This document shows, piece by piece, positions 23,003-58,161 of a stretch of DNA of 64,000 bases. The number at the start of each line of letters is the position of its first letter. Position 1 is the first letter of the stretch. The position numbers and the translations under genes were made by a program. This DNA comes from Acidobacteriota bacterium (GTDB lineage: Bacteria > Acidobacteriota > CAIWXX01), in assembly GCA_040755995.1 (NCBI GenBank), contig JBFMAF010000034.1, positions 1 through 64,000 on the forward strand, in the 5' to 3' direction. Under the pieces are notes generated by a model. The model was not told the DNA's origin and did no database searches. It saw only the letters and a list, made by a program, of their open reading frames with translations.

Positions 23003-23995
23003 ATGGGCATCTCGATGAAGCGGCTGTGGGCGGCGGGCACTGCCATGCTCTGGATCTCCGTGTCTACCGGCATTGCAGCCGCGGCGCCGCTGAGGAACGT
23101 TTCGTTCCTGCCGCAGTGGCAGCCGCAGGCCCAGTTTGCCGGCTACTACGTTGCGTACGCGAAGGGGTTCTACGCGAACCGGAACATCGACGTCACGATT
23201 CTGCGCGGCGGCTCGGAGCAGCCGCCGACGGAACTGCTCGCTGAGAGGCGCACCGACTTCACTACGATGTTCCTCTCGACGGCCGTCGAGCGGAGGTCCA
23301 AGGGCCTTCCGTGCGTGAATCTCGCACAGATCATTCAGCGCTCGGCGCTTCTGCTGGTTGCGCGGAGGTCGAGCGGGATAGCCTCTCCGGCCGACTTCGC
23401 CGGCAAGAAGGTAAGCGTCTGGCCGGAGTTCCAGACGCAGTGCGAGGCACTGTTCCGGAAATACGAGGTGCAGCCGCATACCCTGTTTCAGGGCCCGACG
23501 ATCAACCTGTTCTTGCGAGGCGGAGTCGACGTGGCTTCGGCCATGTGGTACAACGAATACCATCTGCTCATAAGCGCCGGTGTAGACGTCGATGAACTGA
23601 CGGTCTTTCGCTTCGACGAGCTGGGCTTGAACTTCCCCGAGGACGGCATCTACTGTCTCGAGAGCACCTTCGCGAAGGATCCCGGGTTGTGCCGGGATTT
23701 CGTGCAGGCTTCGATCGAGGGGTGGGAGTATGCTTTTGACCACTCGGAGGAGGCGCTCGAAATCGTGATGGCACGAGTCAAGGCGGTCAATCAGGCTACG
23801 AATCGAGTGCACCAGCGTTGGATGCTCCGCAGCATGAGGGATCTCATCATGCCTTCCGGCGATCCATCCCCCGTCGGGCTTCTGAAGGAGGCGGACTACA
23901 GGAACACGGCCACTGGACTTCTCAACAACCGTGTGATCGCCACCATACCCGATTTCGCCTCATTCCATGAGAACTGCATCGCCGAAGCGCACTAG
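23003..23995 (+). CDS. NMT1/THI5-like substrate-binding protein
   Basis: Signal peptide; QWQPQAQFAGYYVA..KGFY. Confidence 0.85.
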   Translation: MGISMKRLWAAGTAMLWISVSTGIAAAAPLRNVSFLPQWQPQAQFAGYYVAYAKGFYANRNIDVTILRGGSEQPPTELLAERRTDFTTMFLSTAVERRSKGLPCVNLAQIIQRSALLLVARRSSGIASPADFAGKKVSVWPEFQTQCEALFRKYEVQPHTLFQGPTINLFLRGGVDVASAMWYNEYHLLISAGVDVDELTVFRFDELGLNFPEDGIYCLESTFAKDPGLCRDFVQASIEGWEYAFDHSEEALEIVMARVKAVNQATNRVHQRWMLRSMRDLIMPSGDPSPVGLLKEADYRNTATGLLNNRVIATIPDFASFHENCIAEAH

Positions 23996-25931
23996 ATGGA
24001 CCCTGGCCTTCAAGCTGGGGATGTTCGTCCTCGTGGGCACATCCATCGTTTTCGGGCTGGCGTTCGGCTACAACTTCTATTCATCGCGTCTGCTCATCCT
24101 GGGCGCAGTCGAGAACGCCGCGCGCAGCCTGAGCGCGTCCACGGTCCAGCGGATCGAGGCGGTGCTCAAGGGTGTTGAAACAATGCCTCGGTTCATGGCG
24201 CTGGAACTGGAGAGGCGGCAGTTCGATGCCGACGGCCTCGTGGATTTCATCCACAGCAACCTGGTCGCCAACCCGGACGTGTATGGTTCGACCGTGGCCT
24301 ACGAGCCTTACGCGTTCAAGAAGGATTCCTACTACTTCGCACCCTACTGGTCCTGGCAGGGGGGGGAGCTGGGCTTGAGCTGGCTCGGCGCCGACACGTA
24401 TCGCTTCCACTTCCATGACTGGTACTTGATACCGAAGGAGGTCGAGGCGCCGGTCTGGAGCGAGCCATATTTCGACGAAGGCGGCGGGAACATCCTGATG
24501 ACCACGTATTCCGTGCCCTTCTACGGGCGCGTAGATTGGGAGCGGAAGTTCCGCGGAGTCGTAACGGCCGACATCTCGTTGGACTGGCTGGTCAACATCA
24601 TCTCGACTGTCCAACTGTTCAAGTCCGGCTACGCATTTCTCATCTCTCAGAACGGCGTCTTCGTCGCGCACCCCGACATGAGCATGGTCATGCGCGAGAG
24701 CATATTCAGCATGGCCGAGGCCGCGGGTGATCCCGAATTGCGGCGGATCGGAAGAGAGATGATCCACGGCGGCCAGGGCTTCGTGCGACTGGATCGCTTT
24801 CACCGCGGGAGGCCCGCGTGGCTCTACTACGCCCCGCTCCCCGCCCTCGGTTGGTCCATCGGCGTCGTGTTCCCCGAAGAGGCGCTCTTCACCGAGATCC
24901 ACGACCTCTTCCAGCGTGTAGTGCTGATCGGAATCGGCGGATTCGCCGCGCTCTTCGCGGTCATCATCCTCATCTCCACGACGATGACCCGGCCGATCCG
25001 CTCGCTGGCTCGAACCACCGCCGAGATTGCCAAGGGAAACCTCGACGTGGTGCTCCCGACGGTGAATACCCGGGACGAAGTGGGCGATCTCTCACGCTCC
25101 TTCGACAACATGCGCGTAGCGCTCAAGGAGTACATCTCTCACCTCACGGAGACCACGGCCGCGAAGGAACGCTACGAGAGCGAGCTGAAGATCGCGCGAA
25201 GCATCCAGATGAGCTTTCTCCCGAAGAAGTTCCCCCCGTTCCCGGAAAGAGAGGAGTTCGATATCTACGCGACACTCGAGCCGGCGAAAGAGGTCGGCGG
25301 CGACCTCTACGATTTCTTCCTCCTCGACGACGGCCGGCTCTTCTTCAGCATCGGAGATGTGTCGGACAAGGGCGTGCCCGCGGCGCTGTTCATGGCCGTG
25401 ACGAAGACGCTCATGAAGGGAGTCGCAACCCAAGTATTCCCCGACCCCGCGATGATCCTCTCACGGGTCAACGAGGAGCTCTGCAAGGAAAACGACTCCA
25501 TGATGTTCGCCACAGTCTTCTGCGCCATCCTCGACATCGCTTCAGGCGAACTGTGGTATTCGAGCGCCGGCCATAACCCGCCGGTGCTGGCGCGGCCCGG
25601 CGCCGAGCCCATGTTCATCACCGTACCTCCGGGCGTGGTCCTTGGCGCCATGGAAGGTATGCAGTACCGGCCGATGAAAATGACTCTCCAGCCGGAAGAC
25701 ACGCTCATCCTCTATACAGACGGCGTAACCGAGGCCACCGACCTGTCGGTGCGCCTCTACGGAGACCATAGACTGATCGAGACGGTTCGAGCCCACAGTG
25801 ATGAATCGGCTGAATCGGTCGTGAACGCGATCATGGCATCGGTGAAGCGCTTCGCCGAAGGCGCGCCGCAGTCCGACGACATCACGATCCTCGCTCTCAG
25901 GTACAGGCCGCGGCGGCCGCGCCTCGTGTAG
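23967..25931 (+). CDS. Cache-HAMP-SpoIIE (RsbU-like) membrane phosphatase
   Basis: WSEPYFD Cache motif, HAMP DEVGDL, EVGGDLYDF, GDVSDKG, YTDGVTEA, QSDDIT. Confidence 0.92.
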   Translation: MRTASPKRTRWTLAFKLGMFVLVGTSIVFGLAFGYNFYSSRLLILGAVENAARSLSASTVQRIEAVLKGVETMPRFMALELERRQFDADGLVDFIHSNLVANPDVYGSTVAYEPYAFKKDSYYFAPYWSWQGGELGLSWLGADTYRFHFHDWYLIPKEVEAPVWSEPYFDEGGGNILMTTYSVPFYGRVDWERKFRGVVTADISLDWLVNIISTVQLFKSGYAFLISQNGVFVAHPDMSMVMRESIFSMAEAAGDPELRRIGREMIHGGQGFVRLDRFHRGRPAWLYYAPLPALGWSIGVVFPEEALFTEIHDLFQRVVLIGIGGFAALFAVIILISTTMTRPIRSLARTTAEIAKGNLDVVLPTVNTRDEVGDLSRSFDNMRVALKEYISHLTETTAAKERYESELKIARSIQMSFLPKKFPPFPEREEFDIYATLEPAKEVGGDLYDFFLLDDGRLFFSIGDVSDKGVPAALFMAVTKTLMKGVATQVFPDPAMILSRVNEELCKENDSMMFATVFCAILDIASGELWYSSAGHNPPVLARPGAEPMFITVPPGVVLGAMEGMQYRPMKMTLQPEDTLILYTDGVTEATDLSVRLYGDHRLIETVRAHSDESAESVVNAIMASVKRFAEGAPQSDDITILALRYRPRRPRLV

Positions 25932-25955
25932 AGAGCGGAGAATGGGAGACTGCGG

Positions 25956-26768
25956 TCACTGCGGCCGAATCCGCCGCTCGCGGATCAGCCGGGCGCACGC
26001 CGCGACGACTTCAGCGTCGTAGCCGATGCCGCTGCATCTCGAGATCTCGGCGAGGGCCGCGTCCATCCCAAGGGCTGGGCGGTACGGGCGGTGATTGCAC
26101 ATGGCCTCTACGCAATCGGCCACGGCAACGATCCTCGCCGGAAGGATGATGGTCTCGCCGGCCAGACGGCGTGGGTAGCCCGAACCGTCCATCCGCTCGT
26201 GGTGCGCGTAGGCGATCTCCGCTATGGGGTACCAGAACTCCACATTCGCGAGGATGTCGCGGCCGGCTTCCGTGTGCAGCTTGATCAGGTTGAATTCGAC
26301 GTCCGTCAGGCGCCCGGGTTTGCAAAGGATCTCGGCCGGCACGCATATCTTGCCGACATCGTGAAGCACACCGGCGATGCGGATTCCGTCGACCTCCTTC
26401 TCAGCCAGCCCCATCTCCGTCGCGATCGCCGCGGCGATCGCGGCGACCCTGGACTGGTGTCCCGCCGTGTAAGGGTCTCGCTTCTCGATGGCCGATGCCA
26501 GCGCCAGCATTGTCCCGTGCAGCACCCGGTCCAATCGCTCGTTGCTCCGCCTCAGCTCCTCCACCATCCCCGTCAGCCGGAACTCGCGCCCCTCCAGCTC
26601 CACCATCATCATCCCGAACGCCTCGGCCAACGCGGTCACGAACGCCGGGTAGGCGCCCGCCCTCGTAAGCTCGAAAAGCTCATTGGCGCCGTCGTAGGAC
26701 CCCTTGGAGATAGACCCGCAGAGCGCCCCGAGGCGCGCCAGCAGTGCTTCGAGCCCTTCGCCTGTCAC
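25956..26768 (-). CDS. HD-GYP c-di-GMP phosphodiesterase
   Basis: RDPYTAGHQ, LHDVGK, HHERMDGSGYP. Confidence 0.92.
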   Translation of the reverse strand: MTGEGLEALLARLGALCGSISKGSYDGANELFELTRAGAYPAFVTALAEAFGMMMVELEGREFRLTGMVEELRRSNERLDRVLHGTMLALASAIEKRDPYTAGHQSRVAAIAAAIATEMGLAEKEVDGIRIAGVLHDVGKICVPAEILCKPGRLTDVEFNLIKLHTEAGRDILANVEFWYPIAEIAYAHHERMDGSGYPRRLAGETIILPARIVAVADCVEAMCNHRPYRPALGMDAALAEISRCSGIGYDAEVVAACARLIRERRIRPQ

Positions 26769-26821: not shown

Positions 26822-26863
26822 ACTCCCCACTCTCTGCCCTCCACTCTCCACTCTCTACTCTCT
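26822..26863. repeat. Six tandem heptamers (ACTCTCY-like)
   Basis: actcccc actctct gccctcc actctcc actctct actctct. Confidence 0.75.
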
Positions 26864-29332
26864 GTCCACCGTCCCCGCGCCGCCGTCGACGCGCACCCGT
26901 TGCCCGTCGCGCAGAAGGTGCGTGGCGTCGCGCACGCCGAAGACTGCGGGGATGCCCATCTCGCGCGCGACGACAGCCGCGTGGCAGAGCGTCCCACCCA
27001 CTTCCATCACAACCGCCGCGGCTCGCGGGAACAGCGGCGTCCAGCCGGGATCCGCGAACTCCACCACAATCACATCACCATCCTCCATCGCACGCGGATC
27101 AGGCTCGCGCAGAATGCGGACCGGCCCGGATACGGAGCCCGCCGACACCGGCGTACCGCGCAGCTGGCCGCCCTGGCCGCGATCCGTCGCGGCATCCTCT
27201 TCGACCGGAACGCCGTCGGATCTAAGGAAATCCGGAGCATGCTCGGTCCTGAAGCGCACGAACTGCTTCTTCCTCTCCTCGACAAGGACAATCGGGTCGG
27301 TCCCGAGTGGCCCGCCTTGCACCAGGCGCACGAGCTCCGGCCATTCCAGGTAGAAGACATCGTCTACGGAGGAGATCGCGCCGCGATCGGCGAACCGCCT
27401 GCCCAGCTCGCGGGCCGCATCACGCATCCGCCGGAAGACGAACACACCATGGTGCTTCGGAGCCTCGCGCAGAGGCATGTAGAGCTCCACCAGTCGCGCC
27501 AGCCATCGCATGACGGGCCTCTTCCACCACGGTGAGGCGGCGACCGCCGTGGCGATCGCACGATCCCTTTCTTCGCTCAGCCTGGCCATGCGCTTCGCGA
27601 CCGGCTCGCGGCCGGTCGACCGCAGTCCAGCCCTCACGAGCTCCAGCACCATCGCCGGGTCCTCGGACCAGCGCGTCGCCCCCAGATCGAACTCCATCGG
27701 CCCGCGATGGCCGAAGCGGTCGAGGAAGAAGCGGAATTGCGTGAGCCAGGGCCGCGCGGCCGGCTCGGCTTGCAGCCTGCCAAGCAGATCTCCAGCTTGT
27801 GCGCAGAACTCGTGTGCGATCGGGCGGGCCGCTTCCACCAGCTCATCGATGGCAACCGAGATTTGAGTCGTCGGGTTGGCCGGGATGCCTGTAGCAAGGA
27901 GATTTCGCGCTTGCAGATGCGATCGGAAAACATGCACCGCGGCGGAGTAGACCATGACCGCCACGCTCTCCATCTGCAATCCGTACATCAGGCGCCGGCA
28001 TTCGGGTTGGAGCAACAGCCGCATCTCATCGAGCAGCTCGTCGTCGCGGAGCGTGCGCACTGAGCGACGCCGTGAAACGGCAGTGCCGTCTTCTTCGAGC
28101 GCGCGTAGGGCGGCGCGCGGCCTCAATGCCGCCGACATCCGCCCGATTGCGCGCACGGTCGACGCGGCGATGCGGAGCATCAGCAGCGGCCGCGATCCCG
28201 GCAGACGTCGCGGCCGCAGTATCCCCTTCGCCCGGAGCTCGCGCACCGCGCTACCGGCCCTCGCGTCGATCGTGTCCAGCAGCCAGGTTATCAACGAGCT
28301 GTACAGCGGAAAGGCCAGCACGCAGTTCATGTTGAAATACACGTGCCCGTGGATCAGGTCCAGCCCTGCCATCTCCCGATTCAGGCGCGTGTCGCTGCGA
28401 ATCCCCAGCAGTTGTTCCATCACCCTGGGTATGATGAGCTCGCGCCAGACGCTCCACGTCAGCGGGAGCAGCGGATCGGGCATCGTTTCGCGAACGTTCC
28501 AGTTGGACCAGACAGTCACCGGGCCGTCATCAGCCGGGTCGACAGAACGTTGAATGACGAACGAAGGCGACTGCCGGAGGCCGGTGATCGGACGCGCCTG
28601 GAGCCACCAGAGCGTTCCTGCCCGGTCGATCGCCCACTCGAGATCCAGCGGACAACCGAATCGCGCTGCGGGATCTCGCGCCTGGGCCGCGATTCTCTCG
28701 ACCTCGGTCGAGCTCAACACGGACCTTGACGCAGCCACGCGACTCTCCCATGCGCCCAACCCCGTGCGATAGACACGCCAGCGCTCGGGCTCGATCGAGC
28801 CCGACACGAGTTGTGCGCCAGGTCCCGCGACCGCTTCGACCACAATCGCCGCGTCGCGCCCGGACGGGTCCTGCGTGAAGCAAACGCCGGCGCATCGCGC
28901 ATCGACCAGCTCCTGGATGACCAGCCCCACCGGCACTGGTGCGACGCTGCCGGCATAGGCCAGCACGCGTGGGCTGGCGCCTGCTGCGATGCAACGCGCG
29001 GCCGCCTCGACGACACCATGCGGCGTGCCGACTCCGAGCACGGTCTCGAACATTCCCGCGAACGACTTCTCCGCCGAGTCCTCCCCCACCGCCGACGACC
29101 TGACCGCCACGAGGCCTCGCAGCTCTGCGGCTCGCCGCTGCAGCTCCGCCCGCTCCGCTTCCAACCACGCCTCCGGCCCGATCGACGTGGTTTCCACTGC
29201 GAACCCCTCCGGCACCTTGGCTCCGGCCTCGATCAGTTTCGCGAGCCCGCATGCCTTTCCGCCGAAGAGGCTCTGCAGGCCGGAATCGAGCTCCGCAAGC
29301 GGGACCATGCGGAGCGGGGCTCTATCGGTCAT
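26855..29332 (-). CDS. PEP/pyruvate-binding dikinase-like protein (rifampin-phosphotransferase/PigC-like architecture)
   Basis: N-terminal GGKA, VRSSA.GED, LQARPIT; C-terminal His swivel GGTLCHAAVVAREMG. Confidence 0.85.
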   Translation of the reverse strand: MTDRAPLRMVPLAELDSGLQSLFGGKACGLAKLIEAGAKVPEGFAVETTSIGPEAWLEAERAELQRRAAELRGLVAVRSSAVGEDSAEKSFAGMFETVLGVGTPHGVVEAAARCIAAGASPRVLAYAGSVAPVPVGLVIQELVDARCAGVCFTQDPSGRDAAIVVEAVAGPGAQLVSGSIEPERWRVYRTGLGAWESRVAASRSVLSSTEVERIAAQARDPAARFGCPLDLEWAIDRAGTLWWLQARPITGLRQSPSFVIQRSVDPADDGPVTVWSNWNVRETMPDPLLPLTWSVWRELIIPRVMEQLLGIRSDTRLNREMAGLDLIHGHVYFNMNCVLAFPLYSSLITWLLDTIDARAGSAVRELRAKGILRPRRLPGSRPLLMLRIAASTVRAIGRMSAALRPRAALRALEEDGTAVSRRRSVRTLRDDELLDEMRLLLQPECRRLMYGLQMESVAVMVYSAAVHVFRSHLQARNLLATGIPANPTTQISVAIDELVEAARPIAHEFCAQAGDLLGRLQAEPAARPWLTQFRFFLDRFGHRGPMEFDLGATRWSEDPAMVLELVRAGLRSTGREPVAKRMARLSEERDRAIATAVAASPWWKRPVMRWLARLVELYMPLREAPKHHGVFVFRRMRDAARELGRRFADRGAISSVDDVFYLEWPELVRLVQGGPLGTDPIVLVEERKKQFVRFRTEHAPDFLRSDGVPVEEDAATDRGQGGQLRGTPVSAGSVSGPVRILREPDPRAMEDGDVIVVEFADPGWTPLFPRAAAVVMEVGGTLCHAAVVAREMGIPAVFGVRDATHLLRDGQRVRVDGGAGTVDRE

Positions 29333-32168
29333 TCGGGCCCGAGTGCCCACGCATCAGGGCCGCGAACGTGTCGAGGACGCGGAGATACGGCTCGATCGAG
29401 GGGATGTAGTGGCGTTCGTGGCGCGAATGAGGGCCGATACCTGACTGGCCCCAGACGACCGCGCAGCCGCCCGGCGCGAATCGCGCGGATGTGCCCGCCA
29501 GCTTCCGGCCGATCCTCGGCGGCTGTAGAGAGACCTCCTCGACCGCTCGCAGCAACCTCGCCAGGTGCGGATTCCCCGGCGGGCAGGCTATGCCGCCCTC
29601 GACGACCTCCGGCGCAAGCTCCACCCCGATCTCCGCGCACGCCGCGGATGCGGCCAGCAGAAACGCATGGGGATCGTCTTCTGGTATCGGCCGCACCTCC
29701 AGGCCGAGGACACCCTCATCTGCGGTGATATTGTAGACGCCGACTTCGCCCGCCCGCAGGAATGGGAACGTGGCGCTGCTCCTCCAGCTCGCATCTCCGC
29801 TCAGTGTGAAGTGCCCCGGCAGCAGATCCGACAAGACGCGGCGCGCATCGATCAGGCGCGAAAGCAGGTCTTGCGGCAGCGCTCCCATTCCCGTGTGCGC
29901 CCGTTCGCCTCGCGCCACCACGCGCAGTCGCATGACTCCGCGATTCGACGTGCATACTTCGCCGAACAGCTCGTCTCCGCGTTCCCCTGTCCTCTCACCG
30001 ATGATCATGAAGTCGGGCGACCACCCGGTGTCTCTGGCCGATTCGCGCAGCACATGCGGTGTTCCATAGGGCTCCGCCTCGCCGTTCTCCTCATTGCCCA
30101 CCAGCAGCAGATTGACCGGCGGATACGGCGGTCCCGAACTGATGGCGCGCCGCATCCACACGACATACGTCGCCACGACGGTCTTCATGTCGGCCGAGCC
30201 TCGGCCCCAGAGATAATCCCCTTCAATGCGCGGTTCGAACTGGCTGTCGTTGGGATCGGGCATGACGACGTCGAAGTGCCCGCCGATGGTGACAGGCGCC
30301 AGGAGCGTCCCCGGGAATCCCGCGAGCAGGGCCGGATACTTGCCCTCGTCCCACAGCCGCACCTGTGCGCCTGCGTCCCTCAGTGTTCCGGCAAGGAGCC
30401 GGGCGCACCGAAACACATCGCCCAGGCGCTCGTTCTCGCAATTCGTGACGGATGGGATGCGGATGAGCGCGGTGGCGAGCGACAGAACCTCGCCGACCAC
30501 TCCACCGATTCCATTCACGTAATCTACGCCGGCGTGGACTGCGATCTGCACGGGCAGCGTCGGATTGCCTCGACACGCAGCCTCGAACGGTTGAAGTATC
30601 TCCGCGAGCTTCCCTGCTTCGTCCTTGAGGGAGTGCCGGCTGGAGGCGATCGCGGCGATCTCGCGGGCCACGATCCGCTCGCGTTCCTCCAACCACTCTC
30701 GAAGGAGCTGATGCGGCACGATACGCGTATCGCCGGCATCCAGCCGCTTCGAGAACCACTCGCGCATCCGCCCGGCCGGATTCGGAGATCCACGCGCCAT
30801 GTCCCACAGAGGCTCGAGGAGACTCTTGTAGCCAAGGACTTCGCTGAGCGGCTCCAGATCGCGCAGGACGCTCGCCAACCACTCCCGCGCCGCCACACGA
30901 GCGCCCGTAAACGGGTGCTCGATCTCCGCCGACAGGCCTCGTCGCGCGGCGGCTTCCTCGTTGCGGCGAGCCCGCGTGACGTCTGACACGTCGTACATGT
31001 AGCCCGCTCCGAACTCGGGGTCCGCGTACCCTCGAATGAGCAGGAGCTCCTTGAAGGCGACCTTGGCGACTGCGAGATCGAGATCGTCGCCGCCCTCGTC
31101 GGTTCGCACTTCGACGCGCGACATGGGCAGGTCCACGATGGCGCAGAGGTTCTCTATGACGAGCGCGCGTTCGGCTTCGTCCAGGCTCGCGTGCTCCTGC
31201 GTCGAGTAGATCCCGCGGCGGTAGAGCTCGCGGAGCTGGTCGCTGGTGGTCGAGATGATCCGATTCACCGGATCGACGTCCGAACGCGCCCGCACCGGCG
31301 TCCAGTTGTTCCCGCCGAAGCGGACGCCCGAGCGGACGAGACCGAAGGAGATCCGGAGGTACTCGGGGTGGCTGGCGTAGAGGCGCGGCACGTCCAGGGC
31401 CTCGGGATTCGGGAACGTCAGGAGGCGGTTGGAGTCGTTGTCGGTCAGGACGATCTCGACCGAGCCGTGACTGTACTGGCAGGAGAGCGGCGAGGCGGCG
31501 GAGATGCCGATGAACAGCGCGCAGTACGGCCGCAGCAGCCGGGTAGCTCGAATCATCGCTTCGCTCCGGTAGTCGGCCAGGCCCTGCTTCTCGCGCTGCG
31601 CGCGCGGCAGGTGGAAGAAGTCCCACGACAGGAGCGACTCGGGCAGCGAGTGGTTCGTGTGGATTCCGGCGGTGGCCAGCTTGCCGCCGAAGAGCTCCAC
31701 GCAGCGGGCGAGGTATCGTTTCTTCGCGAGACTCCAGCCGCCCGGGATGCTGTGCTCGTCGGGGACGACGGGGTACGGGATGTTGCCGTGGAGCATGTAG
31801 AAGCGCTCGCCGAGCGACAACCCGGCCTCCGCGAGAGTATTGGCCACGACACCTTCCAGGATTCGCGCCTCATAGACCGCTCCCTGCGGCGAGTAGTACG
31901 GCCGCGTGGCTATCTCGGTCATCCAGTGGAACACCTCCAGCTGGATGCGCCGTCGCGCCCAATCGGGGAGTCTTTCGCTGCTGATCACGTCCGCAAACGA
32001 GCGGCTCTCGGGCCCGAAGCCGACGCGGTCGACGGGTCTGAGCGCTCCATCGAGAATGTTGAACTCTACCTCCAGACCTGAAGTACCCCGGTCGAACTGG
32101 TTCTCGATCGAGGACTCCGTGGCCAGGCGGTATTTCTCGGCGAATCGATGCCAGTCCGCTGGTGTCAT
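29322..32168 (-). CDS. Fusion of a glutamate-cysteine-ligase-like (carboxylate-amine ligase) domain and an M20 metallopeptidase/deacylase
   Basis: N-terminal GLEVEFNILD, EVFHWMTEIAT, AGIHTN, PVRAR, RVEVR; C-terminal GHFDVV, GRGSADMK, NEE, GE, H. Confidence 0.75.
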   Translation of the reverse strand: MTPADWHRFAEKYRLATESSIENQFDRGTSGLEVEFNILDGALRPVDRVGFGPESRSFADVISSERLPDWARRRIQLEVFHWMTEIATRPYYSPQGAVYEARILEGVVANTLAEAGLSLGERFYMLHGNIPYPVVPDEHSIPGGWSLAKKRYLARCVELFGGKLATAGIHTNHSLPESLLSWDFFHLPRAQREKQGLADYRSEAMIRATRLLRPYCALFIGISAASPLSCQYSHGSVEIVLTDNDSNRLLTFPNPEALDVPRLYASHPEYLRISFGLVRSGVRFGGNNWTPVRARSDVDPVNRIISTTSDQLRELYRRGIYSTQEHASLDEAERALVIENLCAIVDLPMSRVEVRTDEGGDDLDLAVAKVAFKELLLIRGYADPEFGAGYMYDVSDVTRARRNEEAAARRGLSAEIEHPFTGARVAAREWLASVLRDLEPLSEVLGYKSLLEPLWDMARGSPNPAGRMREWFSKRLDAGDTRIVPHQLLREWLEERERIVAREIAAIASSRHSLKDEAGKLAEILQPFEAACRGNPTLPVQIAVHAGVDYVNGIGGVVGEVLSLATALIRIPSVTNCENERLGDVFRCARLLAGTLRDAGAQVRLWDEGKYPALLAGFPGTLLAPVTIGGHFDVVMPDPNDSQFEPRIEGDYLWGRGSADMKTVVATYVVWMRRAISSGPPYPPVNLLLVGNEENGEAEPYGTPHVLRESARDTGWSPDFMIIGERTGERGDELFGEVCTSNRGVMRLRVVARGERAHTGMGALPQDLLSRLIDARRVLSDLLPGHFTLSGDASWRSSATFPFLRAGEVGVYNITADEGVLGLEVRPIPEDDPHAFLLAASAACAEIGVELAPEVVEGGIACPPGNPHLARLLRAVEEVSLQPPRIGRKLAGTSARFAPGGCAVVWGQSGIGPHSRHERHYIPSIEPYLRVLDTFAALMRGHSGPNDR

Positions 32169-32224
32169 GCTGTCTCCGTTGTCAGCTGGCTAGCGAGGCT
32201 GCGCTTGCGGATCTCGCCTGCCGA

Positions 32225-33544
32225 TCACAGCGCCTGCAGGGCCTCCCACATGCGCTGCGCCGCGCGCTCGGTCAAGTCGGGGGGAAGCGCGTAGGAGAAA
32301 CGGATCCATCGAGACCCGTAGTCGCTGAAGTAGACGCCCGGGACGACGGCCAGCCCGAACCGTTCGGCCAGGTATGACCCCATGCCGGCAGAGTCGGTCA
32401 TCTTGCCGCGATCGATCCACGCGCCCAGGTCGAGGAAGGCGTAGTACCCCTTCCCCAGAATGTGGCGGATACCTTTCTCTCGCAAGAAGCGGCCGAGCAC
32501 CGCGCGGCTCTGGTTGGTCGGTGACACGATGCCCGCGCACGCGTTGCCGAAGCCCATGCGGTAGGCGGCTATTGCCACGGCCTGGCTGTGGAACGAAGGA
32601 ATCACCGCGTGAGAGGCGATGTTCTGGATGAACTTGATAACCTTCTTGGAAGCCACCAGGTGAGCGTTGCGTACGTTGCTGGCTCCGAGCGATTTCGTTA
32701 TCCCATCGAGGAAGATGCATCGCTCGCGATCGGACGGATCGAGGGACAGCAGGAAGCGGTTGAGGTCCAGGGGCGACTCATCGGTTACCCAGTGGTATAT
32801 CCAGTCGAAGAGCACGAAGGGGACGCCGGCGGCCAGCGCGTACCGGGCGAGGGCGATCTGCTCGTCGGCGCTCATCGTGCGGCCGGTCGGGTTGTCCGGG
32901 CTCGTGATGATCAGCCCGCACACCCGGCGGTCGCCCAGCCTTCTTGCTTCTTCGATGCAAGAATCGACAGCTTCCCGCGTCAGCGCCCAGCCGTCGGACT
33001 CGCGGCCTGGTGCGAGCATCACGTTGGCGCCGATCGAATACGGGCCCCAGTTGTACGAGATCCATGGCACGCGCGTCACGACCACGAAATCGCCGCGGCG
33101 CCCATGCCCGAGGTGCATCATGGCGTCGTAGGCTTTCACCAGGGCATCGCGGCCGCCCTGGCAGGCGAGAACGCTGTCGGGTCCCCAGCCCGTGCTTGCA
33201 TCCAGGTGCCAGTAGTCCTGCACGACCGTTCGCCGGAACATGTCGCATCCGTACGGCTGGTCGTATGCGCTGCCGTGGTCCTTCTGCAGCTGATGCGCCG
33301 CATCAAGTATCACCTGGGGCACCCCCGGCAGGCTGGCTCCCCCATCCCCCTGGCTCGCGTCGAACATCTCGCCCCCAGGCGCCTGCTTCTCGTACACCGC
33401 CAGCGCGTTGCGGATCTCGAACATCCGGCTGCCGGGTATCGTACGCATGGCCGACATACTGGCATCCACACCACCCAGCTCCTCCGGAGCGACCACCAGA
33501 GCCGGCCTCTCATCGGGTAGCATCGCGAAGTTGTTTGAGCCCAC
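32225..33544 (-). CDS. PLP-dependent class I/II aminotransferase
   Basis: SPDNPTG, FDWIY, DGITKSLG, WIRFSY; GTG start after GAGGAGG. Confidence 0.88.
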   Translation of the reverse strand: MGSNNFAMLPDERPALVVAPEELGGVDASMSAMRTIPGSRMFEIRNALAVYEKQAPGGEMFDASQGDGGASLPGVPQVILDAAHQLQKDHGSAYDQPYGCDMFRRTVVQDYWHLDASTGWGPDSVLACQGGRDALVKAYDAMMHLGHGRRGDFVVVTRVPWISYNWGPYSIGANVMLAPGRESDGWALTREAVDSCIEEARRLGDRRVCGLIITSPDNPTGRTMSADEQIALARYALAAGVPFVLFDWIYHWVTDESPLDLNRFLLSLDPSDRERCIFLDGITKSLGASNVRNAHLVASKKVIKFIQNIASHAVIPSFHSQAVAIAAYRMGFGNACAGIVSPTNQSRAVLGRFLREKGIRHILGKGYYAFLDLGAWIDRGKMTDSAGMGSYLAERFGLAVVPGVYFSDYGSRWIRFSYALPPDLTERAAQRMWEALQAL

Positions 33545-33699: not shown

Positions 33700-36450
33700 C
33701 TACCGTACCGTCACTACCACCAGCGTCAGGTCGTCGGCCTGAGGGGCGCTCCCGACGAACTCGTTCACGGCAGCGAGGATCGACTGCAGCACATCAGAGG
33801 CAGGTTTTCCGAGCTCGGCAGCAACCAGCCGCGCCACACGCTCGTCGCCGAACTCCTCGTCGCGTTCGTTCTTCGCATCAGGGAGGCCGTCGGTGTAGAC
33901 GAGCAGCATATCCTCGGGCTGGAGCTCTATCGTTGCGCTCTCATATGATGCATCCGGGAAGACGCCAAGGATGGTACCGCCCATTTCCAGCCGCTCCAGC
34001 CGCCTGTCCGGGCTCGCTGCTCTGACCAGCATCGGTGGGTTGTGCCCGGCATTGACGTACGTGAGGCAGCGGCTATCGTCGTCGTACAGGCCGTAGAAGA
34101 AGGTCGCGTAGCGTTCGATCTGTGAGGATGCGTGCAGGTAGCGATTGATAGTCCCCATGAGCCGCTCGACCTCTCTTCCCAGCGCGGGCGCATGGCTGCG
34201 GAGAAGCGCCTGGAGGTTGGACATGAGGAGTGCGGCGGAGACGCCCTTTCCGGATATATCGCCGACGGCAATGCCGAGCTGGCGCGGCCCCACCTCCACG
34301 AAGTCAAAATAGTCGCCGCCGATGCCGCGGGCGGGCTTGCAGGCGCCGGCGCAGTCGATGGTTGATAGACTCGGGATCGCCTGCGGGAAGAGCTGCGACT
34401 GCACGTCTCCTGCGATCTGCAGCTCGCGCTGCAGCTTCTCCTGCTCGGCCACCTGCACGATCAGCTGGGTATAGTCCAGGGCGACGGCGGCCTGACCGGC
34501 GACGGCCAGCAACAGCTCCTTGTCTTCGCGCGAGTAGGGCTCTTCTGAGAGCTTCTCACCCAAGCTGATGAACCCCATGAGACGGGTGCCGGTGGAGAGC
34601 GGCACGAGGAGTCGAGTGTTGAGGATCTCCAGCAGGCGTCTCTCCTGGTATTCGGCCTGATCCGCGGGCTGCGCGTCGGCCAGTGGTCTGGCCCACGACT
34701 TCGGATCGTCGAGCCAGACTTCGAGGGCACGCGGTTCCTCGGCGGCGAGCCGTTCGACCTCGCGCACGACGAGAGCATTCTGCGGGAGCGACATCGGGTG
34801 CTGCTCAAAGCTTTCGATCACGTCGTTCTCCGCGTGACCCGTTCTGACCTGGTGCCGGGCGCATACGAATGTGCCGGGAGGCAGGGGATCGTACCGGCCG
34901 TCAGAACCCATGACCGGTCTGAAACTCGTATCCCCTTTCCGCAGAAAAATCGCCGCGTGGTCGGGGTGAAGCGAGTTGCAGAGCGCGTCAGTCACGGTCG
35001 CGAGGAGATCATCGGGACGCGCTGCAAGCCTTCTCACGGCCTGGCTGAGGTCCGTCAGGACGTGCTGCGCGTTGTAGGCCTCGCGGAAGAACCGCCGGTC
35101 GATGGCGTGCAGGACCGGCATGTTCGCGCGCCGCAGACCAATCACGGCGGCCGATGTGACCGCACCGGTGACGATGGCGATAGTGCTGGCGCGGGCGCCG
35201 GGGAGAAGAGCCGACAACAATGGCGCAGCCCCGAAAAACAACACCGAGAAGATCAACGCCGCCTCGACGACCAGGAATCCGCGGGACACCAGCGCGTACT
35301 GCAGGCCGCGACGCAGGATCAGGCGAATGCCGAAGACGCGGTGCTTCGCGACGGCGTAAATAAAGGATAGAGGAAAGAGGAGGACGCAAAGGAGTGCCGC
35401 GCCGAGCCTCCACATCGAAGGCGGCTGATCGGGCCGAAGGACGCCGTAGGTGCCCAGCAGAGTGTACGGCAGCAGCCCGATCAGCGCGCCCGAGAGAAGG
35501 ATCGTCATCCGACGCTTCTCGTCCCGACTCTCGGCTCGAATTGTGTTCTCGACGAGCGAAGCCAGGCCGATCATGCACATCGGGGCGAAAACCAGTGCCC
35601 CTGCCATGCGCACGAGATCGGGGCTCGGCGACAAGCGGCCTGCCAGGTCGAACGATACCAGCTGTATCGCGCCTCTGCCCACGGCGACCATCGCAGCAAC
35701 GACGCTCAGTGCAAAGCCGACGGTCTTGATCCAGGGCAGGCGCCGTTCAATGACAGACGGCGATGGGAAGACCAGGAAGAAACGCATCATGAGGTATGGG
35801 GCAAACACGCCCAGGATGGAGTTCTGTAGCAATGCGGCTTCCCGGAGGCCGGGAGGAAACACGAGGGAGTTTTTCCCGAAGAGGGCTGAGAGGCCCAGAA
35901 AGAGGTAGCTCGCCAGCCTGGCCTTCCGGTCTTCGGGTTTGATTAGGGCGAGGAGCAAGGCCGTTGTGATCGCCAACAGAGGCAGGACCACAAACGACAC
36001 AATCCTGAGAAGCCACATCTCGATGCCTATGGACGACGGCAGGGACGGAGGCATCATGATCCTGACAGTCCGGGGTCCCTGCGCCGCTTGCCGCAGGACA
36101 TCGAGCGCCCACGGCTCGCCGTACTGTATCGTCCTCATTGTCCGCGTGTAGTCCATGAGGGATCGAACGGGTCCACCCTGCCCCCTGGCATTGTAAACTG
36201 CGAATATTCGGTCACCGGCCTCCACGCCCGCAATCGCCGCCGGGCTGGGATTACCCGCCGAATCCGTGTCTCGGACGCTCACGACCGTCAGATAGCCGCC
36301 GTCAAGACCGGTGACCATCCCCACAACCCATATGATCGATCCCGGCGTACGGAGAATACCGCGTCCGAACAGCAGCTGATGGACGTCAAGGACCCAGAAC
36401 AAGGAAGCCAGGCCGCACAGAGCCAGGAGCACCCAGTGGCGCTTCTTCAT
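33700..36450 (-). CDS. Membrane PDZ-GAF-SpoIIE phosphatase
   Basis: SPAAIAGVEAGD (PDZ), multiple TM helices, GEKLSEEPYS, GGDYFDF, YTDG, QADDLT. Confidence 0.9.
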   Translation of the reverse strand: MKKRHWVLLALCGLASLFWVLDVHQLLFGRGILRTPGSIIWVVGMVTGLDGGYLTVVSVRDTDSAGNPSPAAIAGVEAGDRIFAVYNARGQGGPVRSLMDYTRTMRTIQYGEPWALDVLRQAAQGPRTVRIMMPPSLPSSIGIEMWLLRIVSFVVLPLLAITTALLLALIKPEDRKARLASYLFLGLSALFGKNSLVFPPGLREAALLQNSILGVFAPYLMMRFFLVFPSPSVIERRLPWIKTVGFALSVVAAMVAVGRGAIQLVSFDLAGRLSPSPDLVRMAGALVFAPMCMIGLASLVENTIRAESRDEKRRMTILLSGALIGLLPYTLLGTYGVLRPDQPPSMWRLGAALLCVLLFPLSFIYAVAKHRVFGIRLILRRGLQYALVSRGFLVVEAALIFSVLFFGAAPLLSALLPGARASTIAIVTGAVTSAAVIGLRRANMPVLHAIDRRFFREAYNAQHVLTDLSQAVRRLAARPDDLLATVTDALCNSLHPDHAAIFLRKGDTSFRPVMGSDGRYDPLPPGTFVCARHQVRTGHAENDVIESFEQHPMSLPQNALVVREVERLAAEEPRALEVWLDDPKSWARPLADAQPADQAEYQERRLLEILNTRLLVPLSTGTRLMGFISLGEKLSEEPYSREDKELLLAVAGQAAVALDYTQLIVQVAEQEKLQRELQIAGDVQSQLFPQAIPSLSTIDCAGACKPARGIGGDYFDFVEVGPRQLGIAVGDISGKGVSAALLMSNLQALLRSHAPALGREVERLMGTINRYLHASSQIERYATFFYGLYDDDSRCLTYVNAGHNPPMLVRAASPDRRLERLEMGGTILGVFPDASYESATIELQPEDMLLVYTDGLPDAKNERDEEFGDERVARLVAAELGKPASDVLQSILAAVNEFVGSAPQADDLTLVVVTVR

Positions 36451-36558: not shown

Positions 36559-36927
36559 CTACTTCCTCGCCGCGCGGCGGGCGGTGTCGAGCAACTCGTC
36601 GAGCTCGGTCGGCTTCAGAAGGTACTCGAAGGCCCCGAGCTCCATACCCTGCACCCCCAATTCCACCGATGCATGCCCGGTCAGCAGTATGACTGGCACT
36701 GCCGGATAGTCCCGCCGCATGCGCCGCAACAGCTCGAGGCCGTCCATCCCGGGCATCTTCACGTCGACCACTGCGCAGTCGTAGCCTTCTCCTGACGCCA
36801 GGGCCTTGAGCGCATCCTCCCCGCTCAGAGCCGTCGTGCAGGCAACGCCTCGTCGAGTCAGGCGAATACACAGGGGCTCCAAGAACTCAACCTCGTCGTC
36901 TACCAACAGGATCCTGAAATCCGCCAT
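36559..36927 (-). CDS. Single-domain response regulator
   Basis: ILLVDDE, DVKMPGMDG, LTGH, YLLKP. Confidence 0.92.
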   Translation of the reverse strand: MADFRILLVDDEVEFLEPLCIRLTRRGVACTTALSGEDALKALASGEGYDCAVVDVKMPGMDGLELLRRMRRDYPAVPVILLTGHASVELGVQGMELGAFEYLLKPTELDELLDTARRAARK

Positions 36928-36994
36928 CTAGTGCCTCCTTAATAGTCAAGCCAGCCCGCCCTGGTCCCCACGCGTGTGGGAATCCCTGTGATGC

Positions 36995-39574
36995 TCAAGA
37001 CCCGCTCGCATCGCCAGTCGCCATAGACTCGGAGCCCTTGAATCCGTAGTCACCCGCCATGAAGGCATCCTCGTACGCCCGCATCACGCCGTCCGATACA
37101 AGCGCCATGTCCAGATGATTGACGTAGCCCATCACGAGACCGGTCAGGAACAGCTTATCCTCCATCTCACGTGACGGCAAGTGCCGCACACGTGCATTGA
37201 TCAGATCCGCCCGACAGTCCGTCTCGAAGCCGCTGCGCAACAGCAGCCGCTGAATCAACTGGGCTCGACGGCTGCGCTGGTCAATGCCCGTCGAACCACC
37301 GACGAAGCGAAACGAGAGGTAGTTGGACTCGATCGCCTCCCCGATTCTCGAGTCCACAGTAGAGAAGTGGTACCCTATGCGTGAATTGAGATTGAGGTAG
37401 TTCGCCGTGATGAAGGCGTATGACGGCTCGCCCATCGCCCGCATCCGCACATCCTGGTCGAAGTTGTAGTTCACGATAGCCGACATGAAGCCCTTCAGCG
37501 AGACGGGCCTCTCCATCTGCCACTTCAAGCGCGGATCGGTCATGCCGTTCCACAGCACGCGCATCGGAATGCAAGTCACGTCGTCTATGGTAACGTCGCC
37601 TTCGCCCAGTCCATCGCGCAGGCCGCCGCCAAGGTCCAGAACGCGGCAGTCGATCGGGACAGCCGAGACCAGGCGGCGCACCTTCGCGCCCTGGCGGGTG
37701 GCGCGGTCGCCGAGGGCAAACATCGATTCCACCGTCGCCTGGTGGCAGAACCGGATGATGTCGTGTATGGTGTTGCACTTCCGAGGCGAGCAGCCGCTCG
37801 CGAGGCGGTCTTGCAGAGTCAGAGGCGTGATCTTCTCCGCCACCGACGCCAGCAGCTCCACGTGCGGGTTCCTCCGCACTTCCGCATAGGGGGTGGCGGC
37901 GGCCAGCGCACCCTCGACTCGCCCGGCGTACACCACACCGGCGTCGGCATCCACAGTAACGAGGATGCCGGGCTTCAGGGCGCGCGTCGCCGAGCGCGTG
38001 GCGAAAAGCGCTGGCACTCGCAGCTCGCGGGCCACGGTCGCCAGGTGCCCCGTAACCTCGCCCATATCCGAGACGATCGCAGAGGCGTGCTGCAGAAGCA
38101 CGGCGAGACGCGGATTCGCCTCATCCGTCACGATCACTGCGCCACGCGGGCATCGGATGATGTCGAGATCGGTCTTGACTGCGAACACGTCGCCGCACGC
38201 GGCCCCGCCACTCGCTCGCGAGCCGCCCTCGAGCAGCACCGGGACGCCCTCGATGCGGGCCTTCTGGAACGTCCTGCCCTCCTCCGCGTGCACCGGCTGC
38301 GGCCGCACCTGCAGCACGTAGACCTTCCCGTCCGCGTCCAGCGCCCACTCCATGTCGATCGGCGTTCCCAGAGCCGAGTCGAGTCGCCAGGCCAGCCTCG
38401 CCACCTGATTCGCCTGCTCCTCGCTCAGGATCGGCGTACCAGCCGCCGCCGAATCAAGCTCCAGCTTCTCCGTTCCTTCCCCAGAGGCGCATCGCAGCAG
38501 CGACGTCTGGACACCCTGCTTGTGTGAAAGCAGCTTCTCCCGAGGTCGATCGAACACGTAGGTGTCGGGCTCGACCGAACCATCCACCGCCGAAAGCCCC
38601 AGCCCACGGACTGCCTGCAGCAAAGTCACTTCGCCCTGTTCCGTTCTGCAGGCGCTGTAGAGCACACCTGCGGCGGTCGCGTCGACCATGGAGATAACGC
38701 AGCAGCACATAGCCACCTCATGATCGTCGAAGCCGCGCCCCAGGCGGTAGGTGATCGCCTGCGGCGAGTACTTACTCGCGATCACCTGCTTGAACGCTTC
38801 CAGGACTCCGTCACGCGTGACGTTGAGCATCGAACGGTACTGGCCGGCAAAGGACAGTTCCAGGCCGCCTTCCTGCAAGGCGCTGGATCGCACGGCCAGC
38901 CGCAGGCCCTGGCCGCCCGGCAACTCCGCGGCTGCACCGCGCAGCGCGGTGGAGAGCGCGGGCGGTATCCGTGCGCCCTCCACCATTCGAGTGATCTCGG
39001 CAGAGACGCGGAAACATCCCTCGGTATTCTCCAGACCAGCGCCCGCCATCGCCTGCGCGATACGCTCCCCGAGCCCGCCGGCGCACATGAGCTCGCGGTA
39101 GGCGGTGACCGTCGTTACGAAGCCGTCCGGTACGTGTCCGCCCAGAATGCGACGCGCCTCGCCCAGGAAAGCGCTCTTCTGCCCGACTACCTCGGCCAGC
39201 CCCGCTCCCACCTCGGACAGCGGAATCACCGGACCGACCTCGCTGAGCACTGGGGTCACCTCAACCCTCTTCGTGATCCACTCCTTGAGCTCCTCGAAGC
39301 GAGGGACGATGGCTCTGTACTTGGAGCCGGTCATGCGAGTCAGATTCACGACCATGCGGTATGTCTGCACTGTCACGCCGGTGACAAGGCGCCGGACCTC
39401 CGCCGCCGACGCATGCTTCTCTCCCGCGAGCACCTGCTGGATCGTCGCCATGCAGCCCAGCGCGGCATTGTTCGCCTGCAACACCTCGCGGAAGCAGTCG
39501 ATCTTCAGGTCGAGACTCGGCGGGGCAGCCTTTCCCTGGCCGAATATCCTCGATGCAAAGCCCTTCAGACTCAT
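36995..39574 (-). CDS. PEP-synthase/pyruvate-water-dikinase-like protein
   Basis: AVRSSA, SFAGQY, LQVRP, phospho-His TGHLATVARE; start MSLKGF at 39574. Confidence 0.85.
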   Translation of the reverse strand: MSLKGFASRIFGQGKAAPPSLDLKIDCFREVLQANNAALGCMATIQQVLAGEKHASAAEVRRLVTGVTVQTYRMVVNLTRMTGSKYRAIVPRFEELKEWITKRVEVTPVLSEVGPVIPLSEVGAGLAEVVGQKSAFLGEARRILGGHVPDGFVTTVTAYRELMCAGGLGERIAQAMAGAGLENTEGCFRVSAEITRMVEGARIPPALSTALRGAAAELPGGQGLRLAVRSSALQEGGLELSFAGQYRSMLNVTRDGVLEAFKQVIASKYSPQAITYRLGRGFDDHEVAMCCCVISMVDATAAGVLYSACRTEQGEVTLLQAVRGLGLSAVDGSVEPDTYVFDRPREKLLSHKQGVQTSLLRCASGEGTEKLELDSAAAGTPILSEEQANQVARLAWRLDSALGTPIDMEWALDADGKVYVLQVRPQPVHAEEGRTFQKARIEGVPVLLEGGSRASGGAACGDVFAVKTDLDIIRCPRGAVIVTDEANPRLAVLLQHASAIVSDMGEVTGHLATVARELRVPALFATRSATRALKPGILVTVDADAGVVYAGRVEGALAAATPYAEVRRNPHVELLASVAEKITPLTLQDRLASGCSPRKCNTIHDIIRFCHQATVESMFALGDRATRQGAKVRRLVSAVPIDCRVLDLGGGLRDGLGEGDVTIDDVTCIPMRVLWNGMTDPRLKWQMERPVSLKGFMSAIVNYNFDQDVRMRAMGEPSYAFITANYLNLNSRIGYHFSTVDSRIGEAIESNYLSFRFVGGSTGIDQRSRRAQLIQRLLLRSGFETDCRADLINARVRHLPSREMEDKLFLTGLVMGYVNHLDMALVSDGVMRAYEDAFMAGDYGFKGSESMATGDASGS

Positions 39575-39913
39575 GCTGACCTGGTGTACAGTGGTCCTCT
39601 CGCACTGCATTATGCCAGCCTGCAGGAGTGCGCACAAGGGAGCCTCCGGACTGCGCCGCTGCCGCGCCGTGGTGACCACGGCACGGTACATCTCGCCGGT
39701 CAGAAGAACGGGAGACGCCGGGAGTGCGCCGATTGCAGCAAGGGATTTGGGGCCGGGGTGCCAGGGCGTCGGGTTGGTTTGACACCTCACCGAGGTCTGC
39801 CGTATTCTTGCCGGCGGCCAATCAGGAACACGGTTTCGAATCTTGGTCCCGCGGTGCTGAACCGAGGACCGACATATCCCGGACTTCGGCTCTGATGCGA
39901 GCAGGAGGTGACG

Positions 39914-41359: not shown

Positions 41360-41399
41360 AGGGGCGGAGGCCCTCCAGCAGCGCTGCGAGGCACACGAA

Positions 41400-41482
41400 T
41401 GGACCACGTGCACGATCACAATTGGATGGTCCAAAAATAGCTACAATTGGAGCTTGACGCCATCCGATTAGCGTCCTACCTT
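41400..41482 (+). promoter_or_regulatory. Putative MocR operator plus sigma70 promoter
   Basis: Direct repeat ACAATTGGA (41418, 41443), inverted TGGACCA/TGGTCCA (41400, 41427), TTGACG-17 nt-TACCTT (41454-41482). Confidence 0.65.
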
Positions 41483-41535
41483 TGACGGTGGAGCCGTCAG
41501 AGCAGCCGGCGGCCCGTCGACAAGGAGGAGGCGAT

Positions 41536-51891: not shown

Positions 51892-52212
51892 CTAGACGCA
51901 GCCGGTGGGTTTCGGAAGCCCGGCGACCTTGCAGGCTCCCTTGGCCGGACCTGACGGGAACAGTTCGTAGACCTTCTTCAGGTTGAAGCCGGTGTCCTTG
52001 CAGAGCTTGCGGATCATCGGGGCGATCTTGAACTCGAGGTAGTAGCCGCGCAGATAGCGCACGAGCTTCCAGTGGTCATCGGTCAACTCCGCGATGCCCT
52101 CTTCCTTCAGGGCCAGCTCCTTCGCGACCTCGTCGTCCCAGAGCTCCGGGTCCTGAATGAAACCGTCTTCGTCTACTTCGAGGGTCTTCCCACCCAGTTG
52201 GACTTGTGCCAT
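51892..52212 (-). CDS. dsrC: DsrC sulfur carrier protein
   Basis: C-terminus GPAKGACKVAGLPKPTGCV has both conserved Cys; dsr context. Confidence 0.95.
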   Translation of the reverse strand: MAQVQLGGKTLEVDEDGFIQDPELWDDEVAKELALKEEGIAELTDDHWKLVRYLRGYYLEFKIAPMIRKLCKDTGFNLKKVYELFPSGPAKGACKVAGLPKPTGCV

Positions 52213-52276
52213 GCTTATTCCCCTTTCCGTTGTGTCTTCGATTCAAGCGACGTTGCGACCAATCGATACTCCAGTT

Positions 52277-53764: not shown

Positions 53765-53784
53765 TCCTTGTTCTCGATCTCGAA

Positions 53785-54033: not shown

Positions 54034-54044
54034 GGATCAGCTCC

Positions 54045-55118: not shown

Positions 55119-55142
55119 ATCTGGTTTCTCCTTTCCTCGCCT

Positions 55143-56351: not shown

Positions 56352-56398
56352 GTGTTTGCAGCTCCTCTCGTTTTGGCGGCCGGCCCTTGGGCGCGAGC

Positions 56399-58072: not shown

Positions 58073-58145
58073 TCTTGAAATCTCCTTTCCCTAGCACTGC
58101 CCATCCATCGGGAGGGGCATGAGTCTAGCCCAATCTGCTAGTTAG

Positions 58146-58161
58146 AGCAAAGACTTTGCCA
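58146..58161 (-). promoter_or_regulatory. sigma54 promoter of the dsrLABDNC-cysG operon
   Basis: Minus strand TGGCAAAGTCTTTGCT (GG-N10-GC), about 75 nt upstream of the dsrL start. Confidence 0.78.

Follow-up and report, generated by a model that had tools for sequence, protein, structure and literature searches.

A conserved two-gene module, composed of an aminotransferase gene and a gene in which a ligase domain is fused to an M20 hydrolase, is present in a 64,000-nucleotide stretch of Acidobacteriota DNA (contig JBFMAF010000034.1, positions 1 to 64,000, hereafter the window). The module is real and its three activities are strictly coupled. An earlier, sequence-only reading of the window had proposed three co-directional genes at 26855..33544, the third encoding a dikinase-like enzyme, as a candidate new amide pathway. 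The open reading frames (ORFs) bear out the coordinates of this layout: three ORFs lie on the minus strand, with 56 nt between the aminotransferase and the fusion and an 11-nt overlap between the 3' end of the fusion and the start of the dikinase-like gene. The conserved unit is nevertheless two genes and not three, since the dikinase-like gene is absent from related loci and no other neighbour is universal. The features of the locus are the following.

32225..33544, minus strand: aminotransferase, class I pyridoxal phosphate (PLP) enzyme, 439 aa, GTG start at 33544 and stop at 32225
32168-29322, minus strand: whole fusion gene, 948 aa
30534..32168, minus strand: predicted GCS2/YbdK-fold ligase, N-terminal domain of the fusion, about aa 1-545, from profile, fold and residues
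29322..30506, minus strand: predicted M20A dinuclear-metal amidohydrolase, C-terminal domain of the fusion, about aa 555-948, from PF01546, fold and residues
26855..29332, minus strand: dikinase-like gene of rifampin phosphotransferase-PigC architecture, 825 aa, ATG at 29332 and stop at 26855

The GTG at 33544 is preceded by a GAGGAGG ribosome-binding motif. None of the three proteins reaches a named NCBIfam cut-off among the matches listed. A promoter scan returned 0 sites, and a search of a plasmid collection gave no match.

The linkage of the two genes was established on a broad set of genomes. A genome scan confirmed 307 stretches, and 80 loci were kept, with titles mostly from Acidobacteriota (many Thermoanaerobaculia) and Chloroflexota. 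The aminotransferase lies upstream of the fusion in 75 of these 80 loci (63 within 300 nt and 12 at 0.56-5.9 kb), and in the remaining five no more than 1.4 kb of upstream DNA is available. Among 301 genomes sampled evenly from the phylum of the window, 34 carry the ligase domain and exactly these 34 carry the aminotransferase, with one gene each where the assembly is intact. The carriers comprise 18 of 20 genomes of family f19, 14 of 22 of f30, one of five of f20, and genome G000; as they are drawn from few families, they are not independent. One sampled genome, G027, on which no conclusion depends, matches DapB once and the module not at all. Of 201 genomes from the phylum of G003, a genome whose locus is titled Chloroflexia, 6 matched. 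Moreover, trees were built for the 69 of 95 loci of a wider set that hold both genes near full length, and 26 of the 28 supported aminotransferase splits are also found in the fusion tree. The fusion is covered to 97-100% by its 119 best non-self matches, at 57-84% identity, and is therefore not an assembly accident. ORF clustering of the 80 loci revealed no other universal neighbour, and no fourth gene, transporter or regulator is conserved, so the input and output of the module should be common metabolites.

More distant relatives preserve the same association in a split form. A profile search with the ligase domain recovered remote proteins of 27-33% identity, among them stand-alone forms of 460-575 aa and one remote ligase-M20 fusion. 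A scan of metagenomes yielded five loci, two of them from one genome. Four were read (L107, L108, L109 and L111, where L108 and L109 share a genome), and in each the aminotransferase, ligase and M20 hydrolase are three co-directional genes in the same order, encoding proteins of 22-24% identity. In L108 and L109 the trio, encoded on the opposite strand, separates carA-pyrB from pyrC-pyrD-pyrK-pyrE, of which pyrB, pyrC and pyrE were confirmed:

L109:606-9532: remote trio interrupting a de novo pyrimidine cluster, groundwater genome bin
L108:409-7290: remote trio in a pyrimidine cluster, same bin

The source annotation of this ligase is a hypothetical protein of bin ACD_28, which we take to belong to Peregrinibacteria. 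Two apparent natural triple fusions, P0015 (1391 aa) and P0033 (1380 aa), were rejected as such: they carry frameshifts near the end of the aminotransferase, probably sequencing errors, and at L004:7800-8060 and L006:7800-8060 the usual C-terminus and stop of the aminotransferase follow in a different frame.

Conservation of the neighbourhood thus holds for the aminotransferase and the fusion and fails for the dikinase-like gene, whose place in the pathway, as first proposed, had to be given up. This gene was found in 0 of the 80 module loci, 56 of which hold at least 2.5 kb of downstream DNA, and in 0 of the 95 loci of the wider set. Its orthologues (52-57% identity) stand in unrelated surroundings in the module-free genomes G014 and G032, and from G000's own family two members were sampled, both without the module and with the dikinase gene in unrelated surroundings; no orthologue was found in carrier G023. 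It is an unrelated neighbour and not a conserved member of the module. The protein itself combines an ATP-grasp domain, a central domain and a swivelling phospho-His domain with an intact catalytic His motif, and matches 5fbs with E 1e-55. Rifampin phosphotransferase and PigC have the same three-part architecture, but the protein is below both cut-offs (262.6 vs 999 for NF041857, Rph; 245 vs 1300 bits for PigC), and such a gene is not linked to the module in other genomes. That all three genes form one pathway in the source organism would agree with their common direction, the 11-nt overlap and a terminator scan that found no terminator-like site between them; against the counts above, this is highly improbable. 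A second PPDK_N and PEP-utiliser protein, of another architecture, lies at window 36559-40264 beside a small response regulator, and similar-looking genes occur at G000:C26:88272-93593.

The N-terminal half of the fusion is a predicted ATP-dependent carboxylate-amine ligase of the GCS2/YbdK fold with an intact active site. The sequence-only reading had described a glutamate-cysteine-ligase-like domain with E-x-E, E, H and R motifs joined to a complete M20 hydrolase in one 948-aa chain, and the folds and catalytic residues of both halves bear this out. Profile comparison with E. coli YbdK gave 97.6% and E 3e-12 in hhalign. In an AlphaFold model of the fusion, built on 118 sequences with a pLDDT of 88.6, residues 27-501 match YbdK (1tt4) with Z 30.0 and a root-mean-square deviation of 3.0 over 341 residues; GshA (1v4g, Z 22.4) and a plant glutamate-cysteine ligase (2gwc, Z 21.6) follow. 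The ligase residues considered are E33, E35, E78, E85, Y152, H170, R248, R293, E353 and R355; E33, E35, E78, E85, H170, R248, R293, E353 and R355 are conserved in 118 of 118 homologues. With remote members added, the metal, ATP and glutamate-site set is invariant in 14 of 14 rows, except E78. In a weak, partial alignment to GshA (59.7%), E33, E35, E78, E85 and H170 fall on E27, E29, D60, E67 and H150, and Y152 on Y131; R248, R293, E353 and R355 align to YbdK motifs, R248 at the arginine of YbdK 'SSRP'. These aligned positions are presumed to serve in binding metal, ATP and the glutamate alpha-carboxylate and in the acceptor pocket. The alpha-carboxylate role of the R248 position, taken from GshA structures, and the cysteine-pocket role of GshA Y131 are assumed as well. 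Judged by these residues, the donor would be glutamate, the acceptor an alpha-amino acid and the product a gamma-glutamyl-alpha-amino acid. Despite the fold and catalytic residues shared with YbdK/GCS2 and GshA enzymes, the domain differs from them by its identity of about 20%, its extra helical segments, its fusion to M20 and its scores below the family cut-offs (TIGR02048 37.9 vs 249 bits; PF04262 12.8 vs 27). Two giant-virus protein clusters (467-478 aa) resemble the ligase domain in the ESM Atlas, on language-model features only, with a score of 0.93.

The C-terminal half shows the features of an M20A N-acyl-amino-acid hydrolase, namely the fold, the H/D/EE/E/H set and an arginine for the alpha-carboxylate. 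It matches PF01546 with E 4e-18, and modelled residues 554-941 match 2rb7 (Z 38.2) and DapE 8f8o (Z 35.8). The metal and catalytic set (H631, D660, E693, E694, E725, H914) and R826 are invariant in 118 of 118 homologues; the remaining substrate-site residues are R726, R743, H758, N813, K889 and R896. As far as the accessible parts of PMC10809365 and PMC11270798 describe the residues of DapE that contact succinate and the amino-acid product, R743, H758, N813 and R826 match them, R826 corresponding to DapE R258 and R743, by alignment, to the succinate-binding Arg179 of Acinetobacter baumannii DapE. There are two more invariant basic residues, R726 and K889, which persist in the remote forms; the match of R826 in those forms was made by eye, as the alignment slips there. 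The domain is suggested to be an N-acyl-amino-acid hydrolase for an anionic acyl group, to which it would be suited because of R743 and the invariant basic R726 and K889. The acylated amine is most likely an alpha-amino group, since the predicted hydrolase keeps an arginine for the alpha-carboxylate beside the scissile amide. That the fusion might be an ordinary DapE or ArgE, named beforehand as grounds for dropping the proposal, is not borne out: scores are below the cut-offs of DapE (NF009557 73 vs 284; TIGR01246 46.7 vs 361.8) and ArgE (TIGR01892 31.7 vs 297.7), and the ArgE specificity residues H182 and Y330, as given in the accessible part of PMC11270798, are not found at the aligned positions. 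Of the DapE succinate-site residues (from the available text of PMC10809365), the Arg (R743) and His (H758) are present and the Tyr is absent.

The partner of the fusion has the fold and PLP-binding residues of a class I PLP aminotransferase (fold type I), with a PF00155 match of E 7e-23, best sequence matches among solved structures to 5wmi, 1j32, 1o4s and 1bkg, and fold matches up to Z 40.6. By sequence comparison it is nearest to the subgroup Ib aspartate/prephenate aminotransferases. Its PLP lysine K284 and residues W161, N218, D247, Y250, R415 and R132 are invariant in 12 of 12 aligned rows, three remote ones included, and most listed homologues measure 431-450 aa. R132 aligns to K169 of the prephenate/aspartate aminotransferase 5wmi, a position which we take to bind the distal carboxylate of dicarboxylic substrates, and the active-site residues suggest that dicarboxylic substrates are used. 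Of 48 NCBIfam matches, the best 25 all miss their cut-offs by a wide margin (for instance NF041091 65 vs 550, TIGR03537 36 vs 454), and among these the protein is below the named aspartate aminotransferase, DapC, DapL and C-S lyase families; GntC, the top match at 96 vs 415 bits, was not accepted as a function. Since this dedicated enzyme is kept in G000 despite 23 PF00155 matches in that genome, its retention implies a substrate that the general aminotransferases do not serve.

With its two genes and three activities, this self-contained module probably puts amino acids through a cycle in which an amide handle is attached for a time and then removed. The uncharacterised route proposed from the sequence stands to that extent, as an amide-handle route tightly coupled to an aminotransferase, and loses its third gene. 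The analogy then drawn with the protect-modify-deprotect logic of the Puu and LysW pathways fits loosely: those routes use ligases of the glutamine synthetase (GS) type or ATP-grasp ligases, class III aminotransferases and omega-amines, whereas the alpha-carboxylate arginine of the M20 domain and the class I aminotransferase point to an alpha-amino group.

A more specific mechanism, for which we infer the substrates, the order of steps and the physiological role, is put forward tentatively, as the likeliest of those considered: an ATP-driven, one-way transamination with an amino-acid carrier. At the expense of ATP, the ligase would couple glutamate, through its gamma-carboxyl, to the alpha-amine of an amino acid X that acts as carrier. 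The aminotransferase would then pass the glutamyl alpha-amine of gamma-Glu-X to a 2-oxo acid with two carboxyl groups, in the most plausible case oxaloacetate, so that aspartate and 2-oxoglutaryl-X are formed; the glutamyl unit would be its target because the one amine of X is acylated, leaving this as the only free alpha-amino-acid unit. The M20 domain would finally cleave 2-oxoglutaryl-X, suited to its site because it is an anionic N-acyl amino acid, into 2-oxoglutarate and X, which would be reused. The net reaction would be Glu + 2-oxo acid + ATP -> amino acid + 2-oxoglutarate + ADP + Pi. Such a ratchet would explain the constant co-inheritance of the three activities without a fourth gene. 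Aspartate is possibly the product, a weak indication given by R132 and the neighbouring genes. It is more doubtful still that a single engine, fused or split, is so ancient as to be shared by Acidobacteriota, Chloroflexota and a small-genome groundwater bacterium with a pyrimidine-cluster copy, and makes amino-acid (perhaps aspartate) formation irreversible.

Precedents for such a ratchet are found in the accessible parts of two sources, which describe the coupling of glutamine transaminase to omega-amidase in methionine salvage (PMC6302742) and the deamination of the gamma-glutamyl unit of glutathione by transaminases, with hydrolysis of the product by Nit1 (PMC7041631). The module would have in common with these systems the ligation at the gamma-carboxyl of glutamate, the transfer of the glutamyl alpha-amine and the cleavage of a 2-oxoglutaryl amide, and with these the one-way logic. 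The known systems, however, employ GS, a nitrilase-fold amidase and ammonia or Cys-Gly as partner, in place of a GCS2 ligase-M20 fusion and a dedicated aminotransferase. By this comparison the module would not be a member of the omega-amidase ratchet even if it works alike, its predicted amidase being of the M20 type.

Amino-acid genes occur near the module at single loci:

L010:5653-6609: archaeal-type asparagine synthetase A, beside a single locus
L068:1-5973: arg cluster, beside the module
L071:7755-10456: argG-argH, beside a single locus
L136:14445-16882: ornithine-aminotransferase-like and alanine-dehydrogenase-like genes, seen by eye

In favour of aspartate, besides the remote trio of the pyrimidine cluster, AsnA, ArgG (twice) and an AspA-like gene occur in four other loci. 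Several points weigh against the proposed ratchet and the coupling on which it builds. Aspartate-using neighbours amount to 5 genomes among 95 loci, where two or three would be expected by rough chance in 1.39 Mb; moreover, the neighbour query left out purA, nadB and panD, and argBCD, MetB-like and MetH-like genes were also seen. G000 has no aspartate or glutamine hole, as it carries AspA, GdhA, two GlnA, AsnA and AsnB, along with PyrB and general class I aminotransferases, and the formation of aspartate from glutamate and oxaloacetate is favourable without ATP. The residue logic rests on alignments and not on docking, and the predicted acyl-site arginines would fit gamma-glutamyl or succinyl groups too; R896, at the position of DapE R329, is invariant in the close family and missing in the remote split forms. 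In 12 of the 80 loci unrelated genes or DNA lie between the two genes, only 29 of the 44 supported fusion splits recur in the aminotransferase tree, and shared descent would by itself make the trees agree. For G000, a replacement of glutamine synthetase, asparagine synthetase or aspartase was rejected, since all are present there. A role in ornithine synthesis was likewise rejected, as L068 has its own arg cluster beside the module; in G000, E. coli queries gave no ArgB match and weak ArgC and ArgH matches.

The closest characterised M20 folds, those of DapE, raise an alternative, a protect-modify-deprotect route of the kind named in the sequence-only reading, in which the ligase would acylate the alpha-amine of an amino-oxo-diacid, the aminotransferase would aminate the oxo group and the M20 domain would free a diamino acid, in analogy to DapD, DapC and DapE, for diaminopimelate or a related compound. 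The succinylase branch likewise consists of an acylating enzyme, a class I aminotransferase (DapC) and an M20A deacylase; the substrate arginines of DapE are kept, and the positions of DapE R178, H194, N245, R258 and R329 are invariant in 118 of 118 close homologues. Furthermore, G000 (99.8% complete) has DapF, a LysA-like gene and MurE with a DNPR motif but no DapB or DapD match, and a DapA-like gene only below threshold. The module differs from that branch in its ATP-dependent ligase, which stands in place of a coenzyme A transferase, in its scores below the DapE cut-offs and in the loss of the DapE tyrosine, and no conserved gene would supply another amino-oxo substrate. For diaminopimelate the alternative fails on genome content. 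All 22 of the 22 f30 genomes have DapD, whether they carry the module (14) or lack it (8), and so does G290, and carrier G039 holds a separate, complete operon of dapE-like, asd, lysC, dapB, dapA, dapD, DapC-like aminotransferase and lysA genes; this disposes of a replacement of DapD or of the whole branch. G000 and the f19 genomes (20 of 20) have no DapB match and could not make the substrate. On both counts the module does not fill the acylation, transamination and deacylation steps of genomes with DapA and DapB. Replacement of DapA and DapB themselves shows no clean pattern, as DapB is found in 163 of 301 genomes, 0 of 20 in f19 and 22 of 22 in f30, and many module-free families lack it. 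The combination of DapF without DapB recurs in the module-free G014 and G032. This alternative is judged unlikely.

The dap inventory of these families was also recorded. DapF is over cut-off in 3 of 3 f1 and 3 of 3 f19 genomes tested, though f1 and all of the 20 f19 genomes give no DapB match; DapD is likewise unmatched in the f1 and f19 genomes tested (G014, G032, G055, G067 and G079 were examined). The dap-related genes of G000 are at C26:84706-85554, C10:80639-82990 and C14:33468-34976. The peptidoglycan diamino acid of G000, f1 and f19 may come from salvage, lanthionine or another route, independently of the module; the G000 searches excluded DapL and Ddh.

The union of ligase and hydrolase, fused or adjacent when split, could instead make a switchable gamma-glutamyl dipeptide synthetase/amidase serving a nitrogen store, osmolyte or signal, the aminotransferase making or removing an uncommon amino-acid partner. 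Surroundings that vary freely, as in an accessory cassette, and a patchy distribution would suit this, and E. coli GspSA (glutathionylspermidine synthetase/amidase) holds opposing activities in one chain. In Puu, Pau and GspSA a gamma-glutamyl handle is added and removed, but there the ligase and hydrolase have other folds, the substrates are omega-amines, and class III aminotransferases or oxidases take part. A common partner amino acid, moreover, would not need a strictly co-inherited aminotransferase, the 80 loci conserve no transporter or regulator, and at gathering threshold the window gave no Rfam element and the eight loci scanned gave tRNAs only. The odds are again low, no better than for the diamino-acid route.

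A link to thiols is less probable than either. Here the ligase would form gamma-glutamylcysteine, the M20 domain would strip glutamate from S-conjugates and the PLP enzyme would act as a cysteine-conjugate C-S lyase. The fold is that of glutamate-cysteine ligases, the alignment of Y152 to GshA Y131 would agree, and class I PLP enzymes include C-S lyases, some among the fold matches. The scores, however, are low (gshA_cyano 37.9 vs 249 bits; PatB C-S lyase 39.7 vs 340), by sequence the PLP enzyme stands nearer to aspartate aminotransferases than to lyases, and G000 has a separate YbdK-like gene and the bacillithiol gene BshC. An exchange with bacillithiol was rejected, as BshC is over cut-off in carriers G000 and G290 and in non-carriers G014 and G032, and absent from eight other carriers tested. 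The probability left beyond the readings named here belongs to unforeseen chemistry.

Each domain belongs to a known superfamily, and the combination is uncharacterised. No description of the module was found in a literature search by title and start of abstract, whose coverage lay outside most subscription journals and supplements. What this analysis adds is that the dikinase drops out of the module, that the diaminopimelate route has been tested directly, that the triple fusions stem from frameshifts and that a specific, testable mechanism is proposed. Small and strongly conserved, the module keeps its active sites intact and is common among bacteria of sediment and soil, and database names such as succinyl-diaminopimelate desuccinylase or aspartate aminotransferase distort metabolic reconstructions. 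If the ATP-driven ratchet is true, it would be a new way of making transamination irreversible; if it is not, the module should at least reveal new substrates of GCS2 ligases and M20 hydrolases. As two genes suffice, the reaction could be found by a modest in vitro screen.

The module is flanked at window 23003-26768 and 33700-36450 by signalling genes, none conserved with it, encoding an NMT1-type binding protein, a Cache-HAMP-SpoIIE phosphatase, an HD-domain protein and a membrane GAF-SpoIIE phosphatase. A membrane protein of 483 aa, unmatched in NCBIfam at 1e-25, is followed by a MocR-family regulator over the PdxR cut-off at window 39908-43023. Finally, window 51892-64000 holds dissimilatory sulfur genes, with AprA over cut-off (60494-62380), a DsrC-family protein (51892-52212) and, by eye, AprB-, DsrN- and DsrMKJ-like neighbours; the host may be a sulfate reducer.

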